From IMG/VR virus record IMGVR_UViG_3300042507_004218, positions 1-61,564 of that record: a stretch of DNA of 61,564 bases, one strand, 5' to 3'. Source of the stretch: a virus (lineage: Duplodnaviria; Caudoviricetes). Under the pieces are notes generated by a model. That model saw only the letters and a program-made list of their open reading frames with translations. It ran no database searches and was not told the DNA's origin. Of this stretch, positions 5,578 through 38,735 are shown piece after piece. The position numbers were made by a program, and so were the translations under genes. The first letter of the stretch is position 1. Every line of letters starts with the position of its first letter.

Positions 5578-7131
5578 CTAGTAGTACGCAGCGCGTCTAA
5601 CGCTGCGGAATTCACGTGGTTCTTCAGGCTCATCCGACGGCAGTCTGATGAAGCCGCCCTGGCGCATGCGCATGAGCGCCTGCGTGCAAGTATCGACGTA
5701 GTCGTCGTGTTCGCCAGCGGGGAAGGCCGCGATCTCCTCGATGACTTCGCGTGCCCAGCGCGTGTCAGGCGCCCAGACACGACCCGAGGAGAACAGGTCC
5801 GAGACGGCGTTCAAGCGCACGCGCTTGTCGTTCGACTGGTTGGCCTTGCCACGCGAGGGGCTGAACTCGCCAATCGCGATGCCCATGGCGCGTAGCTCCT
5901 GGATCAGAGGCGCACCGGCAGCTTTCTTCTCGATCAAGCAGGCATCTGGCTCCCACTCGCGGTAGTACTCCAGCGCGCGTTTCTTCAGGTCAGGAAATGT
6001 CCACCGCCCCTTGATGGCGTCGAGCAGGATGATGTGGGCGTTGTCGTTGTCTTCCTCGTTGAACCACACGCCCCACGTGGTGCAGGCGGTGTAATCGCTG
6101 GAGGTCTTTGTCTCGTGCGCTGTGTCCCACGACTGGATGATGTACTCGCACTTGGGCGGCTTCTCGTGCTCCCAGATCTGCCAGAGGTCGCGCTTGATGA
6201 CTGCCGCCACCTCAGAGGTGGGGTTCTGCATGTACTGCGCCTGCCAGAAGCGCGGGTCCATGCCTGCACGTTTTGCCTGCAACTGCTCCAATGGCCACTG
6301 CTCCGGCCACAAACTCTTCTCTTCAGGCGTATGCTCGTTCAGAATGGCCGGAAGCTCGACAATCTCCCACTTGTCAGCGTCAGGGTTCTTGATCTGGTGC
6401 TTGATCAACATCCCCGTAAGGTCGATCTCGCTCCACCGCGTCATAATGACGATGATGGCGCCTCCTGGCATAAGGCGCTGGAGGGGGCCGGTCTGGAACC
6501 AGTTCCATGCCGCGTCGAAAGGCGTGCGTGTGCCCGCTTTGATGTCCTGTTCCGAGTGCGGATCGTCGATGACAAACAGATCTGCGCCCCGGCCTGCGAT
6601 ACTGCCGCCCACGCCAACCGCGTAGTATTGGCCACCTTCGGTGGTTGACCACTTTCCAGCCGCTTTTTGGTCCTCAGAAACGCTTGTTTTGGGAAAAATA
6701 GGCGTGTAGACCTCGGTTGCGATGAGGTTTTTGATGCGACGCCCAAAATCTTCCGACAGAGACGCGGTGTGCGTCCCCATGATGACCTTTTTGTGCGGAA
6801 ATTTGCCCAAAAAGTAGGAGGGAAATAGATAAGAGCTGAACTCCGATTTGCCCATACGGGGCGCGATGTTGATGATCACCCGGTGTTTGCGCCCATGGAT
6901 GATGTCATCGAAGATCTTACTGAGCGCGCGGTGGTGAGCGCCTTCCTTGAACCCCGGATAGACGGCGTGTGCGAAGCCTACCACTGAATTCTGAGCGGCT
7001 TTCAAGCGACTTCGGCGTTCTTTCTCTTCGAGCAGGTCGAAGAGTTCCATTTTTTCCTTGACAGAAAGCGTAGGAAGCGCGGCATGAATAGCCTGCGCTT
7101 CTGCGGGGGTCAAGAAATCAGGCAGCTTCAT
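5578..7131 (-). CDS. terL: Terminase large subunit
   Basis: Walker A IAPRMGKS, Walker B LFVIDD, coupling motif IMTRW, RNase H-like nuclease motifs QSWDTA and HDDYVD. Confidence 0.95.
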   Translation of the reverse strand: MKLPDFLTPAEAQAIHAALPTLSVKEKMELFDLLEEKERRSRLKAAQNSVVGFAHAVYPGFKEGAHHRALSKIFDDIIHGRKHRVIINIAPRMGKSEFSSYLFPSYFLGKFPHKKVIMGTHTASLSEDFGRRIKNLIATEVYTPIFPKTSVSEDQKAAGKWSTTEGGQYYAVGVGGSIAGRGADLFVIDDPHSEQDIKAGTRTPFDAAWNWFQTGPLQRLMPGGAIIVIMTRWSEIDLTGMLIKHQIKNPDADKWEIVELPAILNEHTPEEKSLWPEQWPLEQLQAKRAGMDPRFWQAQYMQNPTSEVAAVIKRDLWQIWEHEKPPKCEYIIQSWDTAHETKTSSDYTACTTWGVWFNEEDNDNAHIILLDAIKGRWTFPDLKKRALEYYREWEPDACLIEKKAAGAPLIQELRAMGIAIGEFSPSRGKANQSNDKRVRLNAVSDLFSSGRVWAPDTRWAREVIEEIAAFPAGEHDDYVDTCTQALMRMRQGGFIRLPSDEPEEPREFRSVRRAAYY

Positions 7132-7778
7132 GTTTGCGGCAACACTACTGCGTCAGAAACGGGCTGCGCGTCAACAACGCCCATGAAGCGTGAGAGCTTC
7201 TCCTTGATTTTGGCGTCGAGTTCGGTGTCGCTGACGTTCGTCTTTTTGACCTCTACGCGGTCGGTGAAGAGCGCAATCTCCGTGACGCGGCCAAGTAGCT
7301 CCAGCGCCCTCAGGCGTATGCGTGCATCTGGGTGCTTGGTTTCTTCCACGATCTTGGCTACCGCGTAGCCTCGGATCTCCTTGGCCTGCTCGACGAACTC
7401 CCAGTCGTAGGCGGTCAGCATGCCCGTCAGGTGCTGCACGGCAGCAGGCGTCTTCAGCGCCAGGAGGCGCTGTTTCTGTGTCTCGGACGGGGTGTTGGGC
7501 GCGGTGACGGCCACAAAGGCGCTTTGCGCCATGGCCACGGAGTTCTGCGCTTCGGTGGAGGCAACGGTAGGCGCCCCCAGGCTGGCCAACCAGTTGGCCG
7601 TGCCGTGCTGTGCGGCAATGACCTGGGTAGGCGCGGCGTCTTCAAGCGGCGTGAAGGACGGGCTGTCCTCCGCGCAAATCTCCGGCTCGAAGTCGATCAG
7701 GTGCTGCAGCATGTTTTCGCAGGGCTTGGTGCCCGATGGGCGCGAGTGTATACTCAGGTCGCTTGCTTCGGCAAGCAT
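7128..7778 (-). CDS. Putative terminase small subunit
   Basis: Overlaps the TerL start by 4 bp; helical RLRALELLG motif. Start is uncertain: ATG 7778 (AGGAGA RBS) or ATG 7712. Confidence 0.55.
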   Translation of the reverse strand: MLAEASDLSIHSRPSGTKPCENMLQHLIDFEPEICAEDSPSFTPLEDAAPTQVIAAQHGTANWLASLGAPTVASTEAQNSVAMAQSAFVAVTAPNTPSETQKQRLLALKTPAAVQHLTGMLTAYDWEFVEQAKEIRGYAVAKIVEETKHPDARIRLRALELLGRVTEIALFTDRVEVKKTNVSDTELDAKIKEKLSRFMGVVDAQPVSDAVVLPQT

Positions 7779-7836
7779 GCTTGTCTCCTGCTGCCGGAGC
7801 ATCCGGCTTTGGCCCCCTCGGTGAGGGGGTTTTTTT
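7761..7836 (+). ncRNA. Candidate ~75-nt small RNA carrying an anti-RBS segment
   Basis: TTGGTG-17bp-TATACT promoter (7726-7754), then GCTTGC-TTCG-GCAAGC hairpin, linker CATGCTTGTCTCCT, GCCGGA-GCA-TCCGGC hairpin and an intrinsic terminator. Confidence 0.55.
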
Positions 7837-7838
7837 AT
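7812..7838 (+). terminator. Rho-independent terminator
   Basis: GCCCCCTC-GGT-GAGGGGGT stem-loop followed by a T-run. Confidence 0.8.
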
Positions 7839-7844
7839 TTGTGT

Positions 7845-7964
7845 ATGTCAAGAATTTGACAATATGTGTTTGGTTTTTGTAGTAATGTCAAGGATTTGAC
7901 AAAAGTAATTTTGTTTTTGTAGTAATGTCAAAGATTTGACAAAAGCAGTGTGGTTTTTGTAATT
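7845..7964. repeat. Three AT-rich 40-bp tandem repeats, each containing a TGTCAA-N4-TTGACA palindrome
   Basis: Palindromes at 7846-7861, 7886-7901 and 7926-7941, each followed by GTTTTTGTA. Lies at the divergence point of the two genome arms. Confidence 0.9.
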
Positions 7965-8194
7965 TAATTTTGTAAAAAATGCGTAGTGTGGTTGTGGTTT
8001 CGTGTTCATATAGCGTCGCTACCTCGCTGCACAGCTTGGGGGCTCCCGGGTAGGGTGGGGTCAGCAGTAGGGGCTAGGGGAGCACGCTGAAGGGGGGTTG
8101 AGGGCATATGTGAGAGGGCCGAATCCTCTCGGCGACGCCGCACGCACTGCGGCATTTTGGTAATGGGACACGATGTCCCCATTGGAGTAGCAAC

Positions 8195-8638
8195 ATGAAC
8201 AAGCAATCCCTTTTCCGTGCTTTCGACGCCTACGCTGTGGGTTCGCAGAATCTGGTGGAAACCCTGCGCAAGGCAGCCGTCGAAGCGGGTTTCAAGACCC
8301 TCGAAGACTGCAAGCCCGTGGTGACCGAATGGGCTTCGAAGAAGTACGGTGTGCCCCTGGTCGAGTCGAAGAGCCCGCGCAACAAGGGCGAGATGGTGCT
8401 CGACCGCGCGGCAGCGAAGTACGAAGCCGCCAAGAAAGCCGCACAACGCCTGATGGACGCGCTCGGCGGTGACGCTGACGCGCAGGCAAAGCCGGCCAGC
8501 AACAAGACCGAGGGCGTCGAAGTGCCCGCGCATATCGCTGCTCTGGCAGCGAAGCTGGCAGCGGCTTGCCTGGAATACGAGCAGTCGAAGAAGATCGCCG
8601 CGCAAGCGGTGGCCGAGGCTTTCGCTGCCGCGAAGTGA
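8195..8638 (+). CDS. First early hypothetical protein (147 aa, Ala/Lys-rich)
   Basis: GGAG RBS, phage-typical codon usage, immediately after palindrome 1. Confidence 0.8.
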   Translation: MNKQSLFRAFDAYAVGSQNLVETLRKAAVEAGFKTLEDCKPVVTEWASKKYGVPLVESKSPRNKGEMVLDRAAAKYEAAKKAAQRLMDALGGDADAQAKPASNKTEGVEVPAHIAALAAKLAAACLEYEQSKKIAAQAVAEAFAAAK

Positions 8639-10916: not shown

Positions 10917-10971
10917 GCCTGCGTTTGTAACGGGATAGAAATCTACCCCACATTGAAGAAGGAGAAGTGAG

Positions 10972-11160
10972 ATGCAAGAAGTTTGGTTCATACGAGGCGA
11001 AGCCGTCGATGGGCTGCGCCATATGCTCTTCGCGACCAAGATGGCTGCGGAGATCTACGCTAGAAAACTCTTCCCCGATGAAGACCCGGACAGGCGCTAT
11101 GCGCGTATCTACTGCATGCCTGTCTGGGAAGAACGCGACCTCAAAGGAACCAAGAAATGA
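10972..11160 (+). CDS. Hypothetical protein
   Basis: AAGGAG RBS, 62 aa. Confidence 0.7.
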   Translation: MQEVWFIRGEAVDGLRHMLFATKMAAEIYARKLFPDEDPDRRYARIYCMPVWEERDLKGTKK

Positions 11161-11237
11161 AGATGCACCCCGACGACGCTCTGCTGCTCGCTGTCTGCGT
11201 AGCAGTTGCAGCACTGCTGGTTTTTGGTATCATTTGA
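11157..11237 (+). CDS. 26-aa single-TM peptide
   Basis: MKMHPDDALLLAVCVAVAALLVFGII, AAGGA RBS, ATGA overlap with the upstream gene. Confidence 0.5.
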   Translation: MKMHPDDALLLAVCVAVAALLVFGII

Positions 11238-11326
11238 GCAGGCACAAGCCTGCGCCCAACCGTCGCCCCTGCGGTCCAGGGGCAAACAAGCGGGGACATG
11301 ATGTCCCCATTGAAGGAGAAGCAAGC

Positions 11327-11932
11327 ATGAAGACCATCAACAAGCCCACCCCCACTGCGCTCTTCAAGGCAGCGCTCGACAGCGTCAAGCGTCGGGCCAT
11401 CATCGCGCAGCACAAGCGGGTGCTGTATGCCGCCTTCGTGCGGCTCCCGCAGGTCAAGCCCATCTTCGTCACGCTGGCCAAGGCGGCGCTGGGTGGTGAG
11501 CATCCCTGGGTCAACACCTCGGAGTACAGCGCCGAGGTGTCCCTCGGCCTGACGCTGCGCGAGCTGGAGTCGTTCAAGGACGAGCGCTTGACGAAGCTGG
11601 TGTCTGCCTTCGCGGGGGACGAGGGGACCGCCACCACGACGGACTACACGTACGACCAGCCCAACCGTGACTACCGCTTCACGATGGAGATCGAAGCTCC
11701 GCTGGCCGACCTGCTCGACGAGCAGCGTCGGGGCCTGCGCCTGACCGCTGCCGAGCAGCGCTCGCTGGCGTGGCTGCGCGAGCAGGCCCCGTACGAGGTG
11801 CCGCGCACCGTGCTGCTCACCGTGGGGATCTACGCCTACGTCAAGGCAGACAGCGCCGCCTGCCGCATCGAGGTCGTGGGCATCGAGGAGGAGGTGATCA
11901 AGAAGGAGATCAAGAGGATCGTCTGCGCCTGA
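11327..11932 (+). CDS. Hypothetical protein (201 aa)
   Basis: AAGGAG RBS after the palindrome at 11292; strong GC3 codon bias from 11327 onward. Confidence 0.75.
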   Translation: MKTINKPTPTALFKAALDSVKRRAIIAQHKRVLYAAFVRLPQVKPIFVTLAKAALGGEHPWVNTSEYSAEVSLGLTLRELESFKDERLTKLVSAFAGDEGTATTTDYTYDQPNRDYRFTMEIEAPLADLLDEQRRGLRLTAAEQRSLAWLREQAPYEVPRTVLLTVGIYAYVKADSAACRIEVVGIEEEVIKKEIKRIVCA

Positions 11933-12014
11933 CTGCGTCAGGTAGCGCCCGCTGAGCGGGCGCGTGAGCCCCCGGGGTAGAAAGCTACCCCATTCACCCC
12001 AAGGAGTAAGCAAC

Positions 12015-12224
12015 ATGCCATCCTGGCACCAACAAAACGCATTCCGACGCGACGGTTTCCCTAAGCTGTCGCACCCCACCATGTGGAGCAGCTACAACCT
12101 GCAGGGGCATCTCAGCGTCATGCGCCACGAATCACGCGAAGCGTGCATGACCTACTGCGCCAAGACGGGGGATGTCCCTCTGTCGCCTGACAACCACACC
12201 CTCGCAACGAAGAAGGAGAAGTGA
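12015..12224 (+). CDS. Hypothetical protein
   Basis: AAGGAG RBS after the palindrome at 11974. Confidence 0.6.
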   Translation: MPSWHQQNAFRRDGFPKLSHPTMWSSYNLQGHLSVMRHESREACMTYCAKTGDVPLSPDNHTLATKKEK

Positions 12225-12225
12225 C

Positions 12226-12930
12226 ATGCTATCCATCGACACCAACGCCAAGACCGTCAAGGGTCAGAAGTACGGCTACATGACAGGCGTCCTCTACCTG
12301 TCTCCGTACAACAAGTCCGGGCACAACGTCTGCCCCTTCGCCGCCATCGCCCAGTGCCACGCGCCCTGTCTCGATACTGCTGGCCGGGGCGCGTTCGACT
12401 CCGTGCAGCAGGCACGCCTGCGCAAGACGCAGATGTTCTTCGAGGACCGCGACGCGTTCATGGCCCTGCTGGTGGAGGACATCATGCGCCTGGAGCGCAC
12501 GGCCCAGGCCCGGGAGCTCGTCCCCGTGTGCCGCCTCAACGGCACATCCGACATCAAGTGGGAGCGCATCGCTGTGACCGTCAACGGCCACACTTACGCC
12601 AACATCTTCGAGGTCTTCCCGTTCATGCAGTTCTACGACTACACGAAGACGCCTGGGCGTGACGTAGCGCACATCCACAACTACGACCTGACGTTCAGCT
12701 ACTCCGGCGTGCCCGACTTCCAACGCTACGTGCGATACGCCAAGGAGAGCGGCATGCGCATCGCCGCCGTGTTCCGCAAGCGTGACGAGATCCCAGACAA
12801 GTTCCTCGGCATGGCGTGCGTTGACGGTGACGACAGCGACCTGCGCTTCCTCGACCCCCCGGGTGTCGTCGTGGCGCTGTATGCCAAGGGCCGCGCACGC
12901 CTGGATACGTCTGGCTTCGTCGTCGGCTGA
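12226..12930 (+). CDS. GP88-like protein with a three-Cys cluster (possible Fe-S / radical-SAM-like)
   Basis: NVCPFA..QCHAPCL..AGRG, RLNGTSDI, QFYDYTK, YDLTFSYS, DGDDSDLRFLD, LYAKG. Confidence 0.65.
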   Translation: MLSIDTNAKTVKGQKYGYMTGVLYLSPYNKSGHNVCPFAAIAQCHAPCLDTAGRGAFDSVQQARLRKTQMFFEDRDAFMALLVEDIMRLERTAQARELVPVCRLNGTSDIKWERIAVTVNGHTYANIFEVFPFMQFYDYTKTPGRDVAHIHNYDLTFSYSGVPDFQRYVRYAKESGMRIAAVFRKRDEIPDKFLGMACVDGDDSDLRFLDPPGVVVALYAKGRARLDTSGFVVG

Positions 12931-13061
12931 CAACATGCAACGGGGACATGTTGTCCCCGTGTCTTTTACTATCAACAAATCCCCGCAGTGTGCTACACTG
13001 CAGCCGCGCCTCGGGTTTTCAGGGGCACATCGGGCCAAAGGCCCATTGAAGGAGAAAGCAA

Positions 13062-14051
13062 ATGGCTCATCAAATCGACACCACCTCCCGCGCCACCGCT
13101 TCGTACGCCTCCACCCGCAAGGAGTGGCACGGCCTGGGGCAACTCATGCCCGCTGGCGCCGACCTCGACGCCTGGGCCCAGGCGGCGAACATGGACTACA
13201 AAGTCCTCCGCGCCTACCCGCGCTACGCCGTGGAGCGCATCAACCCCGAGGCTTCCCACATCCCTGCGAGCGCCTTGCGTCAGGTCGAGGACAAGGTCGT
13301 GCTGTTCCGCAGCGACACCCGCGCGCCCCTGGGCGTGGTCAGCGACGGGTACAAGGTCGTGCAGCCCCGGGAGGTGCTGGAGTTCTTCCGCGAGTGGGCG
13401 GACGCAGGCGGGCTCACCATCGAGTCCGCAGGCGTGCTGTTCGGGGGCAAGCGCTACTTCGCCACGGCTCGCCTGGGCGAGGCAGTGGCCGTGGACGGGG
13501 GCCAGGACCGCATCCTGCCCTACGCCCTGCTCTCCACCTCCGCTGATGGCTCCCTGGCCACCGAGGGGCGCTGGACGACCGTGCGCGTGGTGTGCAACAA
13601 CACCCTGAGCATGGCCCGGGAAGGCGCCACAGCCTTCCGCCTGACGCACCGCAGCGCATGGAAGCCGGAGAAGTTCAAGACCATCATCGAGGACGCCCAG
13701 CACGAGTTCGCCTCCTTCATGGAGACGAGCCGCAAGCTGGCGGCAATCAAGGTCGAGACGAAGCTGGCGGAGGAGATGACGACGCTGCTGCTCACCACAG
13801 CCGCGCGTGATGCGGACGCCGCCAAGGAGAGTGCCGGGTTCCAGCGCATCATGGGCCTGTTCCAAGGCACCGCCAAGGGCGCACTGCTGGAGTCGTCGCG
13901 TGAGACTGCCTGGGGGTGGCTGAACAGCGTCACCGAGTACGTGGACCACCATGCGCGTGCTCGCAACGACGAGAACCGCACCGCCAGCGCCCTGTGGGGG
14001 CAGGGCGACGCGCTGAAGAATCGGGCAGTGGAGATCGCACTGGAGGCGTAA
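13062..14051 (+). CDS. DUF932 family phage/plasmid protein
   Basis: MAH start, WHGLG, RSDT..PLGVVS..YKVVQ, SAGVLFGGKR, TTVRVVCNNTL, TAWGWLNSVTEYVDH. Confidence 0.85.
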   Translation: MAHQIDTTSRATASYASTRKEWHGLGQLMPAGADLDAWAQAANMDYKVLRAYPRYAVERINPEASHIPASALRQVEDKVVLFRSDTRAPLGVVSDGYKVVQPREVLEFFREWADAGGLTIESAGVLFGGKRYFATARLGEAVAVDGGQDRILPYALLSTSADGSLATEGRWTTVRVVCNNTLSMAREGATAFRLTHRSAWKPEKFKTIIEDAQHEFASFMETSRKLAAIKVETKLAEEMTTLLLTTAARDADAAKESAGFQRIMGLFQGTAKGALLESSRETAWGWLNSVTEYVDHHARARNDENRTASALWGQGDALKNRAVEIALEA

Positions 14052-30519: not shown

Positions 30520-30745
30520 GCGGGGGCAGGGCTTCTTCGTTCCCGCGCTTGACCTGGACGCCATGCGAGAAGCGGGACTGCTGGCTGCAGTCCCGCTGCG
30601 CTTGAAGGACGCCCGCGCTACCTACGGCATCAGGGACGGGCAGCTTGGGGTGCTGTTCTACCGGAAAGCCCCTGCACGGCCTGAGCGAGACGAATCTTCG
30701 CCTGACGCGCCCGGTCAAGCTCCGCCCGCTTCCGATCAGGCGTGA
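30488..30745 (+). CDS. Small protein resembling the 14157 family
   Basis: FPWDKLERGQGFFVP...GVLFYR; GAGG RBS. Confidence 0.6.
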   Translation: MPSYFPWDKLERGQGFFVPALDLDAMREAGLLAAVPLRLKDARATYGIRDGQLGVLFYRKAPARPERDESSPDAPGQAPPASDQA

Positions 30746-33700
30746 GGGTGGACGCCCGCACCTGACGTTCGAACTCGGTGATCTGCCCCATCTGCTCCCT
30801 GAACGCGCCTGCCACGGACGCCAGGGATAGCTCGTCGGCCTTCTCCTCGGCGTAGCGCTTGGCCTGCTCGGGCTTGTTTTCCGCGAGCATGCGCTTGTAG
30901 GTCTCCTGCACCTGACGGACCTTGTTCATGCGCTCGTAGACGAGGTCGATGATGCCGCTGGCGTCCTTGGGCTGGAACAGCGTGCCGACCAGCGGGAGGT
31001 CTGACGGGCGCTTGGTGGCAGGCGCAGGGCCCTCGCCAGTACCGGCAAAGGGCGCACTGAGCGCGGAGATGAGCGCCATGCCCATCTGGCCGGTGTAGCC
31101 GCTGATCAGGAACTCCAGCTTGATGGGGGAGAAACCCGTCATCTCGCCCACGGTTTTGGCAAGCTCCGTGGTGCTCTCCCGCGCACGGTACCCAGGTTCG
31201 ATGGCTTGCTCCCGAGCGGACTCGATGTCGCGCCCGGTGTAGGCCGACACCCCGAAGCCAACCTCCAACAGCGGCTTGACGGCTGCAGGGATCATGTAGG
31301 ACGAACCGCCAGGGATCATCTGCTGCACGATGTGCTTCAGCGCCTTGAGGGCTTCTTCGCCGCCTTCCTCGTTGGACAGGGTGTTCACGATGGCCTCGGG
31401 CAGCGCCTTGAAGATGTAGCCCAGTTCGAACGGGATGGGCAGGCGGATGGGCTGCTCGACGCCCGGGAGCGACACGAACCAGTTCCCGTACTTCTCCTCG
31501 GGCTTGGCGTTCTTGTACGCCTCGTCGTCCTGCATCGCCATGGCGTAGGCAATGCTCAAACCGAACAGCATCATGCCACGGGCAATCAGCTTCTTGCGCA
31601 CGCCCAGGCGCTCGTTCATCGGCATCTGGCCCGTGAACGACCGGTACAGAACGTCCAGGCCCTGAATCTGCGCGTTGAAGAAGGGGATCAGCGTGCTGGC
31701 CATGTGCAGGCTGGGCGACAGCCCGCGCCGGCTGAAGTTCATGGACTCCAGCGCCCTGTACGTGGCCTCCATCTCCGACAGGCCCTGCTTGAGGTAGTCC
31801 TCATACTGAGCGCGGCGAGTGAGCGCATCGACCTGAGCTGCCTTGCCCTCCAGATACGCGAGGCCGTTGGTAACGCTCAGCTTGCCCGCCTGCATCGCCT
31901 TGATCATGCGCGACATGTCCTCGGGCATGCCGGTGAAGACCTGACCGCCCGTGATGCCGCGCCGCTCCAGCACCCCTGCCTTGCCGATCTGCTTGAGCGC
32001 ACTCAGTATCGGCACCGTGTTGGAGCCGCTGGCAATTGCGGCTTGCGTAGAGTCCCGGAACAACATCCGTGCCATGTAAACCGGAGACGCCACGATCATG
32101 CGGCGCAGGAAGCGTGCAGGCATGCCCATGACGCGCACGAAGGCCGGGAACATCGTCGGGATGCCCGCCAGACCCTTGACCAGCAGGTCGCTGCTGATCC
32201 CCAACGCCTCAGTGTCCACCACGCCGAAGTGCTCGACGCCGTCGAGCTTGAACGTCACCGCGCCCGCCGGGGCGTTGCCGCCCTTGACCTTGCCAACAGT
32301 GGCGAGCCCGAGATCCTTGAACTCGAACATCAGGTTCTTCATGGCAAGGTTGTGCGTCGCCATGTCGATCAGCATCGAGGTGTTCTGGATGCTGCTGGTG
32401 ATGAAGTCCATGATGGGCTCGTCACCGCCCACAAGCTCCTGCAGATGCGGACTGTCCTTCAGGTTGCCGATGCGGATAGGCGTCTCCTTGCCGATCATGA
32501 GTTCGGCCACGCCGTCGCGTATGCGGTAGTAGGGGATGTAGTCGTTCTCCTGCAGCAGCTCGTTGGCTTGCTCCTTGCTCAGGGCGCCGGTCTGCACGTT
32601 GAAGTTGATCAGGTCGCGGTTGTACTGGTTGTAGATGTCGCGCACTTCGCTGAACGCGTCGCGCAGCACTGGGTTGGCGTCGATCTCGGCCTTGGCGGCT
32701 TTGAAGTCCTCCGGCGTCGGCATGGAGTCCAGGCGGCTCTCCAGGCTGTTCATGCGCTTCGTCAGCACCGTGCGCTGTTCAGCGGACAGCTTCGTGGACT
32801 TGAGTTCGTTCTCGATGCGCTTGATCTCGCCCTGCGCCCACACGCGGCCAAAGTTGAGCGTGTTGTAGCCCACGCGCTCGCCACGGATCGCAGCCATGTA
32901 GAGCGTCGCAAGCTTGTTGGACGCGTCGGCGCTGCCCGCTTCCTTGACCACATCCTTGCGCTTCAGGATGTCGAACGCCTGCTTCAGGTTGGCCCCGGGC
33001 TTGGCCTCGATGAGGTACTCCTTGGTGCCGTCAGGACGAATGATCTCCCTGCGTTCCGGCACGCCGTTCGTGATGGCCTGGGATGTGAAGTGCATCTGCT
33101 GGTCAACCATGCGCAGGTAGTACATCGCCTGCATGGCTTTCGTAGGGTCCGCGCCCGCACGCTTGAGCGCCTCCTCGGTGGGGAAGTACTTGTCGATGAA
33201 CTGCGCACGCCCGCCGATGCCAAGGAAGTTGTCGCGGATCTTGTCGATTACGCCCTTCTCTTTGCCCACCAGTTGATTGGCAACACGTGCTGCGGTGGGC
33301 AGGTTGCGGGAGAAGAGGATTTCTCCCGGCTCCGTACGGGCCTCGGCAGCGGGCGCTGCCTGCCCGCGCATCTCCATCTTCGCTGCACCGAACGCCATGT
33401 CCACGATGCCTTGCGCATCCAGCGTCTTGGGCGGCAGGCCAAACTTCTCCAGTGCGCGCCGGAAGAGCTGTGCGACGCGGCCCAGCCACTGCCCCAGCAC
33501 ACCCTTGGTCTCGGTGGGCTTGACGCCTGCGTTGACGGCCTCCTCGATGGCATAGGCCAGCAACTCGTCGTTGACCTGACCGGCCGGCGTCTCCGCTGCC
33601 TCCACACGTGCGCGTGCGGCCTGGGCCACCCGGGCCTCGGTACTGCCGTCGGTCTTTTTCTCCCAGGACTTGACGGCGTTGACCAAGGCGCTGTACTGGG

Positions 33701-36700
33701 CGTCGCCCAGCATGCTCTTCAGGCCCACGTGGGCGCCAACCTCGTGCAGCAGCACGGACAGCGCCTGCCCCTGGGGGATGTTCTCCGCGATCAGGAACGC
33801 CTTGTTGCCCGCGCTGTCCACGAAGCCGCGAGCGTCTGCCGGAATCTTGCCCTTGTACTGCGGGTTGGCCGCAACGAGCGCGTCCACCGAGTCGTAGATC
33901 TGCACCCGGCCCAGGTCCGGGAAGGTCTTCTTCAGCTCCGTGCGCACCGTTCCGGTGGTGGACGGCGTAGCGGTGGGGCCACGGGAGCGAAAGATCTCGT
34001 CAAGGGGCCGCGCATCTTCGTCTGCTGCCTCCGGCGTTTCTTCGCCTTCGACTTTTTGCGCAGTTTCCGCTTCTCGAAGCGCTTCGAGAGAAACAGTGTC
34101 TTCTTCCGCAGGCGCTTCTGCTTCCCTATCCGCTTCGTCCAGCAGCTTTCTTTCCGCAGGCGTCAAGCTTTCTCCGGCTTCGTCCTTAGCGCGTATCTCA
34201 GCAAGCCGCTCTTCTTTCTTGCGACGAGCAACCGTTTCTTTTGTACGGCTGCGATTGTCCTGCTCGATGAGGAACTGCTCCAGAGGCGTAAGCTCTTCGC
34301 CTCGCGCTTGCCGTTGACGCGCTTCGCGCAGCAAGCGTGCTTCTTCCACAGATGCTCGTTCTTCGACGCCAACTCCCTTACCTTGATAGACCGTCTTCTC
34401 TGCTTTGCGGGCTTCCGCCGCTTCGGTGCGCGTAAGGGCTTCGCCGGTAGTCTCCGGCGCTCCTGCCCGTGTGGCCGCTTCCCGAGCAGACGCTGCGCGT
34501 TCTGCCGCATCTGCCGCTGCTTTTTCAGCAGCACCGATCCTGCGCTTGGGCTGCGGTTGCGCACCTTTGAATGCACCGGAAGAAATCAAATCGGCTACTG
34601 CGTCGCGTTTGCGGACAGCAGTGGCAAGTTCCGTAATGTCTTTGTCGTAGCCTTTCCAGACGACTACTGACTGCATGACCTCGTTTCTGGCCAAGTTGTA
34701 TGCGCGTTCCGCTGCTTGCAGATCCGGTTCGATGGCGGCACGCGCCTCCGCTGACTTTGCGGCTTTGTACTTTGCCTGAAGTTCGTCGTACGGCTTGCGC
34801 TCTTTGATTTCCTTCAGCTTCATCTGCCGAACAGCATCAGTCTTATTGCGCAGCTTTTCAGCAAGCGTAGAGACACGCGACTGGAGTCCGCTGAGCACCT
34901 TTTGAGGGTCGCCCAGAAGTTGCTTCTGCTCAACAAGCGTGATACGCGGCTGTGGCTGTTCCCGAGACAAACGCTGCGCCTCAGTAAGCGCAGGGTAGAC
35001 AACTGCGCCAAGTTCTTGCGTTGGCGCAAAGCGCGTACTACCGGGAATTCCAGCACCTTCAACCGCACGACCTCCCGGTGCCGCCTGCATCCGTTCAAGC
35101 GCCTGCTGCTGCGCCACATAGCGCTTGGTTCTTTCGGTTTCCGCGAGGCCTCGCTTGACTGCTTCGCGCTCGCGTTGTGCCTTGGCCGACTGAGCAGCAG
35201 CGGCTGCGTCCGCCCGCGATACGGTAATCCCCGCCGTGCCCAAAGACTCGCGTGCCTTGCCAAGCTGTTCTTGAAGCGCTTCTATTCGCGCGTCCATGCC
35301 CGGTCTACCCGAAAGCTGCGCAATATCATTCAGCGCTTTTTCTACCGCTACGGCGCGGATCAGGTAGTCGGTTTTTGCAAGCAACGCTCCGCGTTCGGCT
35401 TCCGCAGCCTGAAGCTCCGTAGCATACACCTGCGCTACTTCAAGCAACTGGACCTTGTCTTCCGCCGACACATTGGCGGAATTTATTACGCGTGCTCTTG
35501 CACCGCGAACTTCTTCGATGCGACGAATGCGCTCATCTACATCCATCTTGTCGATGGCCGCTTGTGTAAGCGCAGGCTTAGCGTTCGGGATGTAGCTGAT
35601 CGAAAGTGGTGTCGTTATCTGAAGCGTTTCGCCTTTTTTGACAAGCGCGGTAAGCTCCTTGTCAGCTTTAACGATGGCGCGTGCGGCAACAAGGGTATCC
35701 TTGGCGGCTTGGATAGCTTTTAGTTCTTTTTCTTTGCGGGCAATTTCTTCTTTAAGCTCTTTCAGGCTTTTACGAGCTTTGTCAAACCGTGCCTGTTCAC
35801 GTTGAAGCATTGTCCTTGGACGGTCTTTTCCTTCCAAGAACTTTTTGAACGCTTCAGGGGTCTCAAGAATGAAGCCTTTTTCCGCACCTTCAGGGAACAG
35901 CGGCAGTTGGGCTTCAGTGTCAGCGCGACCTTGTTCAAACGCGGTCAAGGCAAGGCGGAGTTCTTGCGGAACGTCCAGATCAAACTCAGGCGTAGCTGCG
36001 CTAGGACCGCGCAGGGTGTCGGGGCCAATGGCGCTTTTCCCACGCCCCGGGACAGGAGCGCCAAATTCAAGCGCAGTGCCTTTTGGCACTGCTTGCCCTG
36101 CGCGTACTTCTGCTTCATATTCAGCGCCGAGGCGCTCGGCAGTTTCGGGCTTGGCGCCTTTCTTTGCTGCTCGTTCTGCGCGTTCACGCGCATACGCATA
36201 AGCGTCGCGTGCGGCATCCCCGCGAGACATTCCTTTACGCAAGTTGTCCGCAAAGCGCTGTTGTCGCGCTTCTGCCAATGTCAAATCTTCTTCTGCCGCC
36301 GTTGTGGGCTCCGCAGTAAATGCGCGTGCGTACGACGTACTCGTGATACGGCGCGGAGCACCTTCCCCGGGCTGTGTGGCTTCTACCTGCTTGAGAAGCG
36401 CGTCTACAAGCCCGTAATAGCTCTTGGGCGCAACTTGCGTTTCCGGGTAGATCGTTTTGCCGCTGGGCGTTTCAAAGCGCAACGGCTTCAGCTTCTGTTC
36501 TTCACGGCCAACTTGCGTATCTTGTGCAGGCAGTGTGCGCTCAACACGACGTAGCAGTTCGTAGATGTCTTGCGGGAGATCTTCTCGGGCAAGCGAAGAT
36601 GCCAGCCGCGTTTCAAGGTCTTTTGCAGTAAGCGGTTTCTCAACGGGAGGACGCCCTTCAACTTCTTCGCTCGGCGGCGAATACAGGCGGAACTCTCCCG

Positions 36701-38735
36701 TACCTTTAACACGGCGAGGCTCTGCGGGAGCTTTGGGTTCTTCTGCGGTATAGGTGACGTCTTCGCCCAGCAAAAGCTGTTGCGTCTGGCCAATTGCAGC
36801 AGACGGCTGCGCTTCAGGCGGCGTCGCACGCGCAATGCGCTCCAACACAGTGTCCAGATAGGGAGCTTCTTTGACGCTTTCGGGCAACCGCCGCGCAGCC
36901 ATACGCTGCAACGAAGTGATCTCCGGCCCGAGCTTGCGGCGTTCCTCAGTCTCTGCAAGACGTTCTGCTTCAGCGCGTTCCGTCTCTTCGAGCGCGGCGC
37001 GTTCTTCTGCTTCAAGCTGTGCAATAGGCGAGCCTTGCTGCTTCGCCGCTTGCTGCATGTCGTACTTCTTGAGGCCCTCTTTTACAAGGCTGAGAATGGT
37101 GGCGCTTTCACGCTTGCCAAGATCAGGAAGCTGCTCGTTGGCTTGCACCAAACGACGCGCCGTGGGAATGGAGCCCAGCAGGTACTCAGCATAAACGGGT
37201 GCTCGATCTTTTGGATCAAGCCTATCAGCATCCTGTTGGCTGTTCGCAAGCGCAATACGGCTTTGAGCATACGCAGCGGTAGGTTCAACACGCGGTCTTG
37301 TAACAACCGGCGCGGTAATATCGCCAAAGTCCGCGCTCAACTCCTCCGGTTTTTCTGCAACCAGCGCGGTGCGAGGCTGGCGCTTGACGGCTTCCTGATA
37401 CGAGTACTCCGCGTACTCCTCTGGCGTCATGCCCTCGACGCGCTGACGTTCCTTGAGCTGGGCGATCTCCGCTTTCCGAGGCGTGTACTCCGCCGTGAGC
37501 GGGCGCATCGTTTCGTTGGTGAACGCCTTCAGTTCTTCGACACGTTGCTGGTACTCGACGCGTTCATCAGGAAGCGCATCTTTACCGGGCTTGTCTTTGA
37601 CCGCTGCCTGCAATTCCTGCATGCGCTTGACGGCGGCTTGGTAGTCCGTGTCAAGCTTCAGCAGGTACTCCGGCGACTTCTTCTCCGCCTCCGCTGCCTC
37701 GCGTGCAGCCTTGCGTTGCTCGGCCTCCTGGGCTGCTGCAGCCTCCGCCTGTGCGGTGCGGGCTTCGCTGCGAGACATTGCGCGGCCTGCTGTACCAAGC
37801 GGGGCGCCCACCAGCGTGGTCTGGTAAGCCGCCTGAGCGTACTCCGTCAGCGCGTCGTCAGAGAGCACCGGCAAGCCCGCCTGGGCCCGCTCAAGGGCCT
37901 GCTGGACCACCTCCGTAGGCACCTCCGCTGCAACACCCACTGCCGCGCCTTTGGCAACCATCTTGCCCAGCGACTCACGTGCCAGCGCCTCTGCGGCCTT
38001 CTCCTTGCCCTGCTTCAGCAGCGCCTCTACCTGCGGACCGAAGAGCTTGCCGGCCACCGTGCGCCCAAGAGGGATGAACGTGCCTGCAGCCTCCAGGCCG
38101 GTCTGGAGCGCTGCCGCGCCCGCTGCCGCGCCCACATCGATGTCGATGGGCTTGCCTGCCTGTTGCTGCTCTGCCGCTTGCCGCTCGATGTTGCTGCCGA
38201 AGATGGACGGCATTGTGCTGGCCAGGAAACCCAGGCCACCGCCCACGATAGGCCCAACAGGGCCCGTCACCGGAGAAGTCAATGCACCAAGCTTGGCCCC
38301 CGCTGCTGTGGCACCCAACGACGCCCCCAGTTGAGGAAGCTGTTCAGCGATGGCCAGCGGCGCCTGCCGTGCCACCTCGAATGCCGCCGCGAGAGCACCT
38401 TGCGTGCCGTAGACCTCCTTGACCTTGTCCCAACTGACTTGGGCGGCGTAAGGTGAGGCTGCGGCCCGCTTGAGCGCAAGCTCCGCCGCTTGGTTGGCGT
38501 CACCCGTCGCTGCCTGGACGCCTGTGGTCGTGGTGCCGATCAGGCTTTCGAACCCGCGTCCAAGCGCTGCACCAAATCCCGTGCGTTGTTCAGGCGCGGT
38601 AGGCGCAGGGGCGGCTGCCCCCGCCTCTCTGCGAAGAGCAACTTCGAACGCTTGCAGTACCGTGGCGTAGTCAGGAGTACCGCGTTTGTCCTGATTTGCG
38701 CGAAGCCATTGTTCGTACGCAGCAGAGGTCGTCAT
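30630..38735 (-). CDS. Giant polyvalent virion/ejection protein (2701 aa) with a metallopeptidase-like domain and C-terminal LPD38-like domain
   Basis: LLHEVGAHVG...ELLAY zincin motif; RLPIPFELGYIFKALPE resembles LPD38; last gene of the late arm, as for podoviral internal proteins. Confidence 0.75.
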   Translation of the reverse strand: MTTSAAYEQWLRANQDKRGTPDYATVLQAFEVALRREAGAAAPAPTAPEQRTGFGAALGRGFESLIGTTTTGVQAATGDANQAAELALKRAAASPYAAQVSWDKVKEVYGTQGALAAAFEVARQAPLAIAEQLPQLGASLGATAAGAKLGALTSPVTGPVGPIVGGGLGFLASTMPSIFGSNIERQAAEQQQAGKPIDIDVGAAAGAAALQTGLEAAGTFIPLGRTVAGKLFGPQVEALLKQGKEKAAEALARESLGKMVAKGAAVGVAAEVPTEVVQQALERAQAGLPVLSDDALTEYAQAAYQTTLVGAPLGTAGRAMSRSEARTAQAEAAAAQEAEQRKAAREAAEAEKKSPEYLLKLDTDYQAAVKRMQELQAAVKDKPGKDALPDERVEYQQRVEELKAFTNETMRPLTAEYTPRKAEIAQLKERQRVEGMTPEEYAEYSYQEAVKRQPRTALVAEKPEELSADFGDITAPVVTRPRVEPTAAYAQSRIALANSQQDADRLDPKDRAPVYAEYLLGSIPTARRLVQANEQLPDLGKRESATILSLVKEGLKKYDMQQAAKQQGSPIAQLEAEERAALEETERAEAERLAETEERRKLGPEITSLQRMAARRLPESVKEAPYLDTVLERIARATPPEAQPSAAIGQTQQLLLGEDVTYTAEEPKAPAEPRRVKGTGEFRLYSPPSEEVEGRPPVEKPLTAKDLETRLASSLAREDLPQDIYELLRRVERTLPAQDTQVGREEQKLKPLRFETPSGKTIYPETQVAPKSYYGLVDALLKQVEATQPGEGAPRRITSTSYARAFTAEPTTAAEEDLTLAEARQQRFADNLRKGMSRGDAARDAYAYARERAERAAKKGAKPETAERLGAEYEAEVRAGQAVPKGTALEFGAPVPGRGKSAIGPDTLRGPSAATPEFDLDVPQELRLALTAFEQGRADTEAQLPLFPEGAEKGFILETPEAFKKFLEGKDRPRTMLQREQARFDKARKSLKELKEEIARKEKELKAIQAAKDTLVAARAIVKADKELTALVKKGETLQITTPLSISYIPNAKPALTQAAIDKMDVDERIRRIEEVRGARARVINSANVSAEDKVQLLEVAQVYATELQAAEAERGALLAKTDYLIRAVAVEKALNDIAQLSGRPGMDARIEALQEQLGKARESLGTAGITVSRADAAAAAQSAKAQREREAVKRGLAETERTKRYVAQQQALERMQAAPGGRAVEGAGIPGSTRFAPTQELGAVVYPALTEAQRLSREQPQPRITLVEQKQLLGDPQKVLSGLQSRVSTLAEKLRNKTDAVRQMKLKEIKERKPYDELQAKYKAAKSAEARAAIEPDLQAAERAYNLARNEVMQSVVVWKGYDKDITELATAVRKRDAVADLISSGAFKGAQPQPKRRIGAAEKAAADAAERAASAREAATRAGAPETTGEALTRTEAAEARKAEKTVYQGKGVGVEERASVEEARLLREARQRQARGEELTPLEQFLIEQDNRSRTKETVARRKKEERLAEIRAKDEAGESLTPAERKLLDEADREAEAPAEEDTVSLEALREAETAQKVEGEETPEAADEDARPLDEIFRSRGPTATPSTTGTVRTELKKTFPDLGRVQIYDSVDALVAANPQYKGKIPADARGFVDSAGNKAFLIAENIPQGQALSVLLHEVGAHVGLKSMLGDAQYSALVNAVKSWEKKTDGSTEARVAQAARARVEAAETPAGQVNDELLAYAIEEAVNAGVKPTETKGVLGQWLGRVAQLFRRALEKFGLPPKTLDAQGIVDMAFGAAKMEMRGQAAPAAEARTEPGEILFSRNLPTAARVANQLVGKEKGVIDKIRDNFLGIGGRAQFIDKYFPTEEALKRAGADPTKAMQAMYYLRMVDQQMHFTSQAITNGVPERREIIRPDGTKEYLIEAKPGANLKQAFDILKRKDVVKEAGSADASNKLATLYMAAIRGERVGYNTLNFGRVWAQGEIKRIENELKSTKLSAEQRTVLTKRMNSLESRLDSMPTPEDFKAAKAEIDANPVLRDAFSEVRDIYNQYNRDLINFNVQTGALSKEQANELLQENDYIPYYRIRDGVAELMIGKETPIRIGNLKDSPHLQELVGGDEPIMDFITSSIQNTSMLIDMATHNLAMKNLMFEFKDLGLATVGKVKGGNAPAGAVTFKLDGVEHFGVVDTEALGISSDLLVKGLAGIPTMFPAFVRVMGMPARFLRRMIVASPVYMARMLFRDSTQAAIASGSNTVPILSALKQIGKAGVLERRGITGGQVFTGMPEDMSRMIKAMQAGKLSVTNGLAYLEGKAAQVDALTRRAQYEDYLKQGLSEMEATYRALESMNFSRRGLSPSLHMASTLIPFFNAQIQGLDVLYRSFTGQMPMNERLGVRKKLIARGMMLFGLSIAYAMAMQDDEAYKNAKPEEKYGNWFVSLPGVEQPIRLPIPFELGYIFKALPEAIVNTLSNEEGGEEALKALKHIVQQMIPGGSSYMIPAAVKPLLEVGFGVSAYTGRDIESAREQAIEPGYRARESTTELAKTVGEMTGFSPIKLEFLISGYTGQMGMALISALSAPFAGTGEGPAPATKRPSDLPLVGTLFQPKDASGIIDLVYERMNKVRQVQETYKRMLAENKPEQAKRYAEEKADELSLASVAGAFREQMGQITEFERQVRASTLTPDRKRAELDRARQAKIRLAQAVQGLSGRTAPQAARP

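Follow-up and report, generated by a model that had tools for sequence, protein, structure and literature searches.

A predicted small RNA gene with an exposed CU-rich linker between the late and early gene arms of a lake phage

What could a phage make from a short, structured stretch of DNA that lies between its packaging genes and its replication genes, and from which strand would it be made? We asked this of one locus in the IMG/VR virus record IMGVR_UViG_3300042507_004218. The record is 61,564 bases long and rated 97% complete, all of it was analysed and is called the window below, and its DNA is found mostly in runs of lake-water metagenomes, at least 9 lake runs containing half of its sequence words or more. 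A first-pass annotation had proposed that the locus encodes a plus-strand small RNA (sRNA) that silences the adjoining small-terminase-like (terS-like) gene in cis, early and replication genes in trans, or both. Our comparison of the sequence with its relatives makes it very likely that a plus-strand small RNA gene lies at 7761-7838. The trans mechanism proposed for the RNA is a weaker step than the existence of the gene, and it has to be weighed against several other explanations of the same features.

The predicted RNA is about 78 nt long, with its start placed at 7761, 7 nt past the -10 hexamer, and its end in the U-tract at 7838. It would open with a 5' hairpin at 7761-7776 (GCUUGC-UUCG-GCAAGC), continue through a linker at 7776-7789 (CATGCTTGTCTCCT) and a second hairpin at 7793-7807 (GCCGGA-GCA-UCCGGC) that recurs in relatives, and close with an intrinsic terminator at 7811-7838, whose GC-rich stem of 9 pairs (7811-7831) is followed by TTTTTTT. 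The single-stranded CU-rich region, recognized by its conservation and by being predicted unpaired, spans 7777-7792 and has an invariant CUCC core at 7785-7788; the segment UGUCUCCU at 7782-7789 is the CU-rich site complementary to ribosome-binding sites (RBS). The features annotated here before, namely the TATACT hexamer, the hairpins, the linker and the terminator, were all confirmed in the sequence. The terminator is the best of a scan of 7000-8400, which gave 7 terminator-like sites compared with 1.9 +/- 1.4 in shuffles. For the 80-nt plus-strand RNA the predicted folding energy is -36.9 kcal/mol (z = -3.15), a value matched by 0 of 200 shuffles. Taken alone, the minus strand of the window folds about equally well (z = -3.34), so the strand can only be decided with the help of relatives. 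In the window only, UGCUUCGGCA in the 5' hairpin (7764-7773) is complementary to UGCCGGAGCA in the second hairpin (7792-7801), and the two are consequently joined in the minimum-energy fold of the window, a long helix whose loop holds the CU-rich linker. In the closest relatives, unlike the joined helix of the window, the 5' and second hairpins fold separately, and the 5' stem is kept there with a changed loop (GGAU, UGCU). A plus-strand peptide of 15 codons from the ATG at 7777 was also considered and was rejected, as it has no Shine-Dalgarno (SD) sequence.

Near-identical DNA was not found in the phage collection, and an exact 29-mer search of viral contigs gave 0 matches. The comparison was made across the relatives of the terS-like protein, of which there are about 270 in IMG/VR. 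We kept 80 of these loci, giving 81 sources with the window; the alignment (A1) holds 46 unique sequences, 45 were scored for promoter motifs, and 24 lineage representatives were used for folding. Wherever a locus extends far enough upstream, the same layout is present ahead of the terS-like gene. In the orientation of terS it runs from a TGTCnA...TnGACA palindrome through an A-run, a GC hairpin, a second hairpin and AGGAGA(A)GCA to a variable stretch, CTTGC, 17-18 variable bases, TACACT, a short stretch and the ML(E/D)HL start of the protein. A covariance model of the 3' half of the RNA gives one match in 71 of the 81 sources, every one of them on the strand opposite terS and 4 of them in loci outside the seed; the 10 sources without a match include truncated and divergent loci. 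The same model finds the element in 2 further contigs of metagenome-assembled genomes (MAGs) that bear terS relatives.

The relatives also speak to the strand. A terminator hairpin with a T-run is found in all 46 unique sequences, and the T-run follows the hairpin on the plus strand only. From a MAFFT alignment of the 3' half, which was of poor quality, RNAalifold predicted only 3 pairs. In the model-fitted alignment the terminator helix is 82.6% paired and has compensatory changes at 6 of its 9 pairs, and the covariation score of 0.274 exceeds those of shuffles (0.126; none of 500 reaches it) and of slid partners (0.128 or less). In 23 of the 24 representatives (75-132 nt) the plus strand folds more stably than the complement does, the mean difference being -6.2 kcal/mol; control pieces of equal length from neighbouring coding sequence show no bias (+0.1 kcal/mol; Wilcoxon p = 8e-7), and the predicted RNAs are some 12 kcal/mol more stable than these coding-region pieces. 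The 5' domain contains 49 G.U pairs when read on the plus strand versus 8 on the complement, and by our own reading of the folds the UUCG and GCAA loops are in the plus orientation. A second hairpin is present in 22 of the 24 representatives, often with unrelated stems, and is better than shuffles (p < 0.05) in 21. Within the linker CTCC is conserved, and C79 and T80 of A1 show no variation. The predicted probability of being unpaired averages 0.90 for the CUCC core compared with 0.45 for the whole RNA, and for the core it is above 0.8 in 19 of 24. The GGAG opposite the core persists also in those 5 of the 46 sequences that lack a start codon after it.

On the plus strand a -35-like hexamer, TTGGTG (7726-7731), lies 17 nt upstream of the -10 hexamer TATACT (7749-7754). 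Within A1, T1, A2 and T6 of this -10 are invariant and A4 is kept in at least 90%. All 45 scored sequences read TAnnnT (TATACT 15, TATATT 11, TATAGT 9, TACACT 7, TATGCT 2, TAAAGT 1), and the TAnAnT pattern is typical of -10 elements. A -35 TTG at a spacing of 16-18 nt is present in 41 of the 45, and the first paired base of the predicted RNA falls at +1 or +2 in 19 of the 24 representatives. The opposite strand carries a candidate late (terS) promoter, TTGCCG-N18-TACACT (7745-7774, minus), back-to-back with that of the sRNA. TTGCnn is present on the terS strand in 45 of 45 and is followed by N17/18 and TACACT or TACATT in 44, the exception (L060) reading TACTTC; in the window the TTGCnn-N17/18-TACACT motif occurs nowhere else. 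The two -10 hexamers, TATACT (+) and TACACT (-), have their TA in common, which puts about 23 bp between the predicted starts. At the sequence level, then, the locus has the overlapping opposite -10s, each with a -35 at 17-18 nt, that define bidirectional promoters. For such promoters 18, 10 and 23 bp are described as common spacings, and binding in one direction as excluding the other, in the passages available from PMC12825309. On the strength of the shared TA and the start spacing we read 7726-7774 as the core of a bidirectional promoter, with one arm probably serving the sRNA and the other the late mRNA. The late mRNA would start near 7737, so that the terS transcript would not overlap the sRNA. 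A hairpin in the terS 5' untranslated region lends weak support to this start (mean z = -0.57, no strand preference). The earlier reading of a self-contained plus-strand unit with an exposed anti-SD linker is thus backed by the comparison in its promoter, hairpins, terminator and strand.

What could the linker pair with? Start regions resembling its complement, to which the first-pass annotation had drawn attention, do exist at 11327, 14596, 22884, 24111 and 25746. In the window GCAAGCATG occurs 6 times compared with 1.18 +/- 1.10 expected (0 of 100 shuffles reach 6), and GGAGNNNAGCATG, allowing one mismatch at most, 13 times compared with 5.24 +/- 2.31. Early (plus-strand) gene starts often read GGAG(A)AGCAAGC-ATG. 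The early genes starting at 10972, 11327, 12226 and 13062 (10950-13065, plus strand) share an upstream block that reads (A)TTGAAGGAGAAG...ATG or GAAGAAGGAGAAGTGA-ATG, which suggests early start regions that were copied or are under strong selection. We then computed the duplex energy of the 20-nt linker with start regions in six genomes (the window and G001-G005), using crude gene calls. In the window, early starts pair at -16.5 kcal/mol versus -13.8 for late ones (p = 0.006), and 21 of 31 early but only 7 of 21 late start regions are at or below -14 kcal/mol. Early starts are favoured in 3 of the six genomes (the window, G001 and G002), and the real linker flanks beat shuffled ones in the window (z = -4.6), G002 (-5.0) and G003 (-3.4). 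Trans action on early and replication genes appears from this to be plausible but generic, and the early/late switch that had been suggested is hypothetical.

The likeness of the RNA to known families gives another view of its possible role. At gathering thresholds Rfam has 0 matches in the whole window. In permissive mode the best match is RF02837 (anti-hemB), at 23.9 bits with a cut-off of 49.5, the full model (1-81) aligning over 7759-7838 on the plus strand; across the window and 10 relatives, this family has matches in 6 of 11 sources, and those of relatives score 18.5-25.1 bits, below the gathering cut-off of 49.5. No function for RF02837 is given in the passages available from PMC5688073. 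RF02278 (Betaproteobacteria toxic small RNA) matches at 22.6 bits over 7782-7838 (+), its only match in this genome, and the UGUCUCC at 7782-7788 is the first 7 positions of its model. At E <= 10 it is found in 4 of the 11 sources, and RF02278 or RF02837 matches lie on the same strand in the relatives L003, L013, L019, L039 and L054. A likeness in the other direction is suggested as well. A second model built from phage sequences only (R2), which was used for searches only, locates the RF02278 gene precisely in 15 of 20 Burkholderiales loci (E <= 1, 14-37 bits), 13 of these bacterial loci at E <= 0.035. The best non-cognate match of R2 in 216 kb of control DNA reaches 20.6 bits, generic terminator features contributing to its scores.

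True RF02278 members read UGUCUCCUCCAcCCUCCUCCUUUGGUGGAUUcAG plus a terminator, and all 20 of them have CCAyC-CUCCUCC-like loops. In 121 genomes of the Burkholderiales, the order around a Limnohabitans MAG, the family is over its cut-off in 44 and at E <= 0.001 in 82; the one Limnohabitans MAG has no RF02278 match over the cut-off. Because scores across the order grade without a break from 76 to about 29 bits, divergent members are probably missed at the curated cut-off. In one Burkholderiales genome (G075) there are 9 RF02278 matches, and several of these are separated by no more than a few hundred bases. RNAs of this type have unpaired CU-rich regions complementary to ribosome-binding sites, according to passages of PMC5688073. 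Passages of the same paper and of PMC10987360 and PMC11722255 report that overexpression of ncS27 slows growth, and that S17 has a long form that RNase E cuts to 67 nt, binds Hfq and represses a target fusion.

Put together, these observations suggest how the locus could work. A host sigma-70-type promoter, TTGGTG-17-TATACT, would start transcription near 7761, as its conservation indicates. The resulting RNA would carry its single-stranded CU-rich part (...CAUGCUUGUCUCCUGC...) between a 5' hairpin and a second hairpin, and a short U-rich spacer would lead from there to the intrinsic terminator. This promoter would be one half of a bidirectional promoter whose minus-strand half, TTGCCG-18-TACACT, probably drives the late operon headed by the terS-like gene. 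The RNA would act in trans, as do the 'toxic' double-hairpin sRNAs that depend on Hfq in Burkholderiales (RF02278, NcS27, S17): its exposed CUCC stretch would pair with the SD and start regions of mRNAs and block ribosome binding, and the candidate targets are host messages, phage early genes with GGAG(A)AGCAAGC-AUG starts, or both. We put the chances of such a trans-acting anti-RBS mechanism at about even. A wider proposal is that an uncultured freshwater phage family carries a copy-like version of a global double-hairpin anti-RBS sRNA of the host in a bidirectional promoter with its late operon, and that this is a timing device. Firing in the RNA direction would damp host and/or early translation, and once the late direction is activated RNA synthesis would stop. 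This we regard as possible but doubtful.

A number of results weigh against this explanation at one step or another. The promoter scan of 7000-8400 returned no sigma-70-like site at threshold, because the window's -35, TTGGTG, matches the consensus at 3 of 6 positions only; with a minus-strand fold that is as good, the window alone cannot settle either strand or promoter. The L003 group (4 of the 45 sequences) has no -35 TTG. The conserved GCAAG block may perhaps be kept as the -35 of the opposite promoter and not for the RNA. Hairpin 2 and the terminator taken alone show little strand preference (23 versus 18 of 42), and in the covariance-model alignment the second hairpin is paired in 45% of cells, as the alignment is poor there. 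The runs recorded as RNA consist of assembled contigs; of the three that were compared with the window two are probably DNA, and the one clear RNA run has no cover over 7108-8045 and is uninformative on expression. Other problems lie with the targets. Early starts are not clearly favoured in G003-G005, and the flank-shuffle scores are weak in G001 (-1.8), G004 (-1.75) and G005 (-1.3). When the six linkers are paired with the early genes of each genome, the native one comes out best in only 2 of the 6, and in G005 the native linker is the worst; the covariation between linker and targets that had been proposed as a check is therefore not found across the six genomes. The pairing of the linker looks largely generic, in that any complement of GGAG-spacer-AUG would pair. 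The family likeness has its own shortcomings. RF02278 scores of 22.6-28.7 bits (the best in L019) stay well below the gathering cut-off of 50, five of the 11 sources (L015, L017, L021, L063, L078) match neither RF02278 nor RF02837, and the phage hairpin has variable, unrelated stems and loops and lacks the second CU-rich loop site of RF02278. The likeness to RF02278 is, as judged from these models, real but remote, and it does not amount to membership.

The alternative closest to the first-pass annotation is that the RNA acts in cis. It would pair with a late-operon leader that begins further upstream and block the SD and ATG at 7778-7789, or a leader open reading frame (ORF), and the outcome would be that terS and terL are shut off, as by P22 sar or P1 c4/icd. 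The exact complementarity on which that reading was built stands: the RNA is complementary at every base to AGGAGACAAGCATG on the terS strand and overlaps the ATG at 7778 of the window's ORF. In 41 of the 46 unique relatives a possible start codon (ATG, GTG or TTG) comes after the SD-like block, and by our reading the upstream ORF is usually fused to terS or runs past its start where the terS ATG has no SD of its own, and weak TTGACA-N18-TACTTT-type sites are present on the terS strand in the repeat region of the window. What does not stand is 7778 as a conserved start. The conserved protein begins with MLxHL, at 7712 in the window. The N-terminal extension over 7713-7802 (minus), from the ATG at 7778 or at 7802, is not conserved as coding, and the ATG at 7712 has no SD in the window, most other phage genes having a strong one. 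The ORF behind the SD-like block is an in-frame fusion with terS in 13 of the 46 (the window included), is 2-52 aa long and in any of the three frames in 28, and is absent in 5, which have no ATG, GTG or TTG; within one close group (L055 compared with L039) a 1-base indel shifts its frame. This variability indicates that 7713-7802 is conserved as nucleotides and not as protein, and the ATG at 7778 is, on these alignments, unlikely to be a functional terS start. Additionally, we see no convincing sense promoter upstream of the hairpins in relatives, and the TTGCnn-N17/18 late motif, which lies inside the RNA gene, puts the terS mRNA start about 23 bp from the RNA start without any overlap. The non-conserved ORF and the probable position of the late promoter both weaken the cis reading, and we consider it decidedly unlikely. 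Two related candidates were rejected, a type I toxin-antitoxin pair because the sense ORF is not conserved, and a lambda-like late leader with antitermination because the terminator points away from the late genes.

A purely promoter-level role, of competition and insulation, is a serious rival. The RNA would then be the by-product of a symmetric bidirectional promoter with an insulating terminator: plus-oriented polymerase would compete with the late promoter, and the sequence of the RNA would have no function. The geometry fits, with -10s that share TA and starts about 23 bp apart, a common mutually exclusive promoter class in the passages available from PMC12825309, with a terminator directly before three predicted tandem early promoters, and with a GCAAG block that keeps its distance from the -10 whatever its structural context. 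However, this leaves unexplained an invariant unpaired CUCC, a second hairpin that persists in 22 of 24 with unrelated stems, a 5' domain rich in plus-strand-specific G.U pairs and the weak reciprocal likeness to RF02278, and we judge it unlikely. The structure could instead belong to the 5' leader of the late operon on the minus strand, as RNA structure or a leader ORF, the A-run and hairpin being a 5' stabiliser. The window's minus strand does fold as well, the SD-like block with its ATG resembles a normal start region, and some terminator stems have a G.U pair on the minus strand only. Yet the plus strand folds better in 23 of 24 with no bias in the controls, the T-run after the hairpin is confined to the plus strand (46 of 46), and the TAnAnT pattern of the -10 and all the Rfam and model matches are on the plus strand, so that a minus-strand leader seems highly improbable to us. 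The locus lies at the 5' end of the gene that occupies the terS position, a common place for pac sites, and it could be a DNA site (pac, cos or terminase-binding) that heads the packaging genes and has hairpins only by chance. Compensatory stem changes and G.U pairs indicate RNA, though, the spacing between the conserved blocks varies by tens of bases, and the related complete genomes G003 and G005 have direct terminal repeats whose ends are far from the terS-like gene; a DNA site is barely credible. The window itself is classed as linear and is without end repeats.

The setting of the locus is that of a hub. A minus-strand gene arm runs from about 7800 down to 1, its first ORF being 194-224 aa long (7128-7712/7802) with no family found. 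The conserved body of this terS-like gene, 194 aa (7128-7712, minus) from the MLxHL start, lies directly upstream of terL (5578-7131, minus), which it adjoins; the identity of this terL to those of Pelagibacter phage HTVC027P, phage DSL-LC04 and others does not exceed 49.5%. The plus-strand arm begins at 8195 and holds DUF932, a family A DNA polymerase, an SNF2 helicase and a DUF927 protein. The arms diverge, which places the RNA locus between the replication ("early") and the packaging and structural ("late") genes; where they converge there is a single 2426-aa ORF (30630-37910, minus). The terS-like protein has no Pfam, PHROG or Protein Data Bank (PDB) sequence match, and a profile search of solved structures gave one weak chance-like row only. 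Its structure model is all-helical, with a predicted local distance difference test score of 68.8, and has no Foldseek match at E <= 0.001, and small terminase is a label given by gene position and order alone. In the cultured phage DSL-LC04 (terL about 49% identical) the region upstream of terL differs and has neither the terS-like gene nor the RNA element. Directly after the RNA, at 7838-7961 on the plus strand, are three tandem repeats of about 40 bp (period 40, 3.2 copies by tandem repeat finder) with TGTCAAnnnnTTGACA palindromes and promoter-like sites directed toward the early genes. The pattern TTGACA-N18-TAGTAA is found in them twice compared with 0 expected, the third copy reading TAATTT, and at their place in relatives we read TTGGAC-N18-TATAAT. 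The repeats probably represent early promoters in tandem, the -35 of each being enclosed in a palindrome that resembles an operator. In the relative L078 a tRNA gene (2809-2881, 66.7 bits) adjoins the sRNA terminator and replaces the palindrome and promoter region.

Clues to the host are few. A single-protein search of bacterial genomes with the terS-like protein found nothing, and a profile search gave no more than 4 short MAG contigs; these are assigned to four groups with no relation to each other and are probably mis-binned phage DNA. If the likeness to RF02278 holds, it would be a host clue, to Burkholderiales, for a large group of lake phages without a cultured member. To our knowledge, a mechanism has been proposed for few small RNAs of phages that are lytic or uncultured. 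The examples in a phage sRNA review come mainly from lambdoid phages, P1, P22 and prophages, and phage cis-antisense RNAs are described as pairing with start regions or leaders of phage messages (passages of PMC12197685). Among the titles listed in a literature search, none is about a phage-encoded copy of RF02278, NcS27 or a double-hairpin RNA. An sRNA that mimics host-wide dampers of translation would, if it exists, give a compact RNA route to host takeover or to the shut-off of early genes, and the timing of phage genes would be linked to the geometry of a bidirectional promoter.

The comparison with known systems shows both what is shared and what sets this locus apart. With RF02278 (ncS03/05/27/62 and bdhR1 of B. 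cenocepacia, S17 of B. pertussis) the predicted phage RNA shares a 5' single-stranded CU-rich anti-RBS site, a hairpin, a short U-rich spacer and a GC-rich Rho-independent terminator, and each model gives weak matches to the sequences of the other. Some members have longer primary transcripts, as is predicted for the phage RNA (92 nt for NcS27 and 190 nt for S17). RF02278 members also have a near-invariant hairpin 1, CCACC-CUCCUCCUU-UGGUGG, with a second CU-rich site in its loop, whereas the predicted RNA described here, encoded by a phage, has a further hairpin domain at its 5' end and is always located between late and early promoters; the likeness may reflect either descent or convergence. 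RF02837 (Burkholderia RNA 7, ncS04) has three hairpins with a terminator and a near-identical extent, but its middle helix aligns poorly to the phage RNA and the score is sub-threshold. P22 sar, lambda OOP and aQ, and P1/P7 c4 are, like the phage RNA, small phage RNAs that end at intrinsic terminators. Here, in contrast to P22 sar, OOP and c4, the overlapped ORF is not conserved and the target transcript probably starts outside the RNA gene. In T4, the translational repressor RegA and the endoribonuclease RegB shut off early messages at their start regions. The logic would be the same here if the targets are the phage's own early genes with GGAG starts, although RegA and RegB are proteins and the predicted phage product is an RNA. 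The bidirectional promoters of Warman et al., as described in the passages available from PMC12825309, likewise have overlapping opposite -10s and starts about 23 bp apart. Those promoters are chromosomal ones of E. coli, whereas the present one belongs to a phage, has predicted starts and two strongly conserved arms, and is predicted to make a structured, terminated RNA from one of them.

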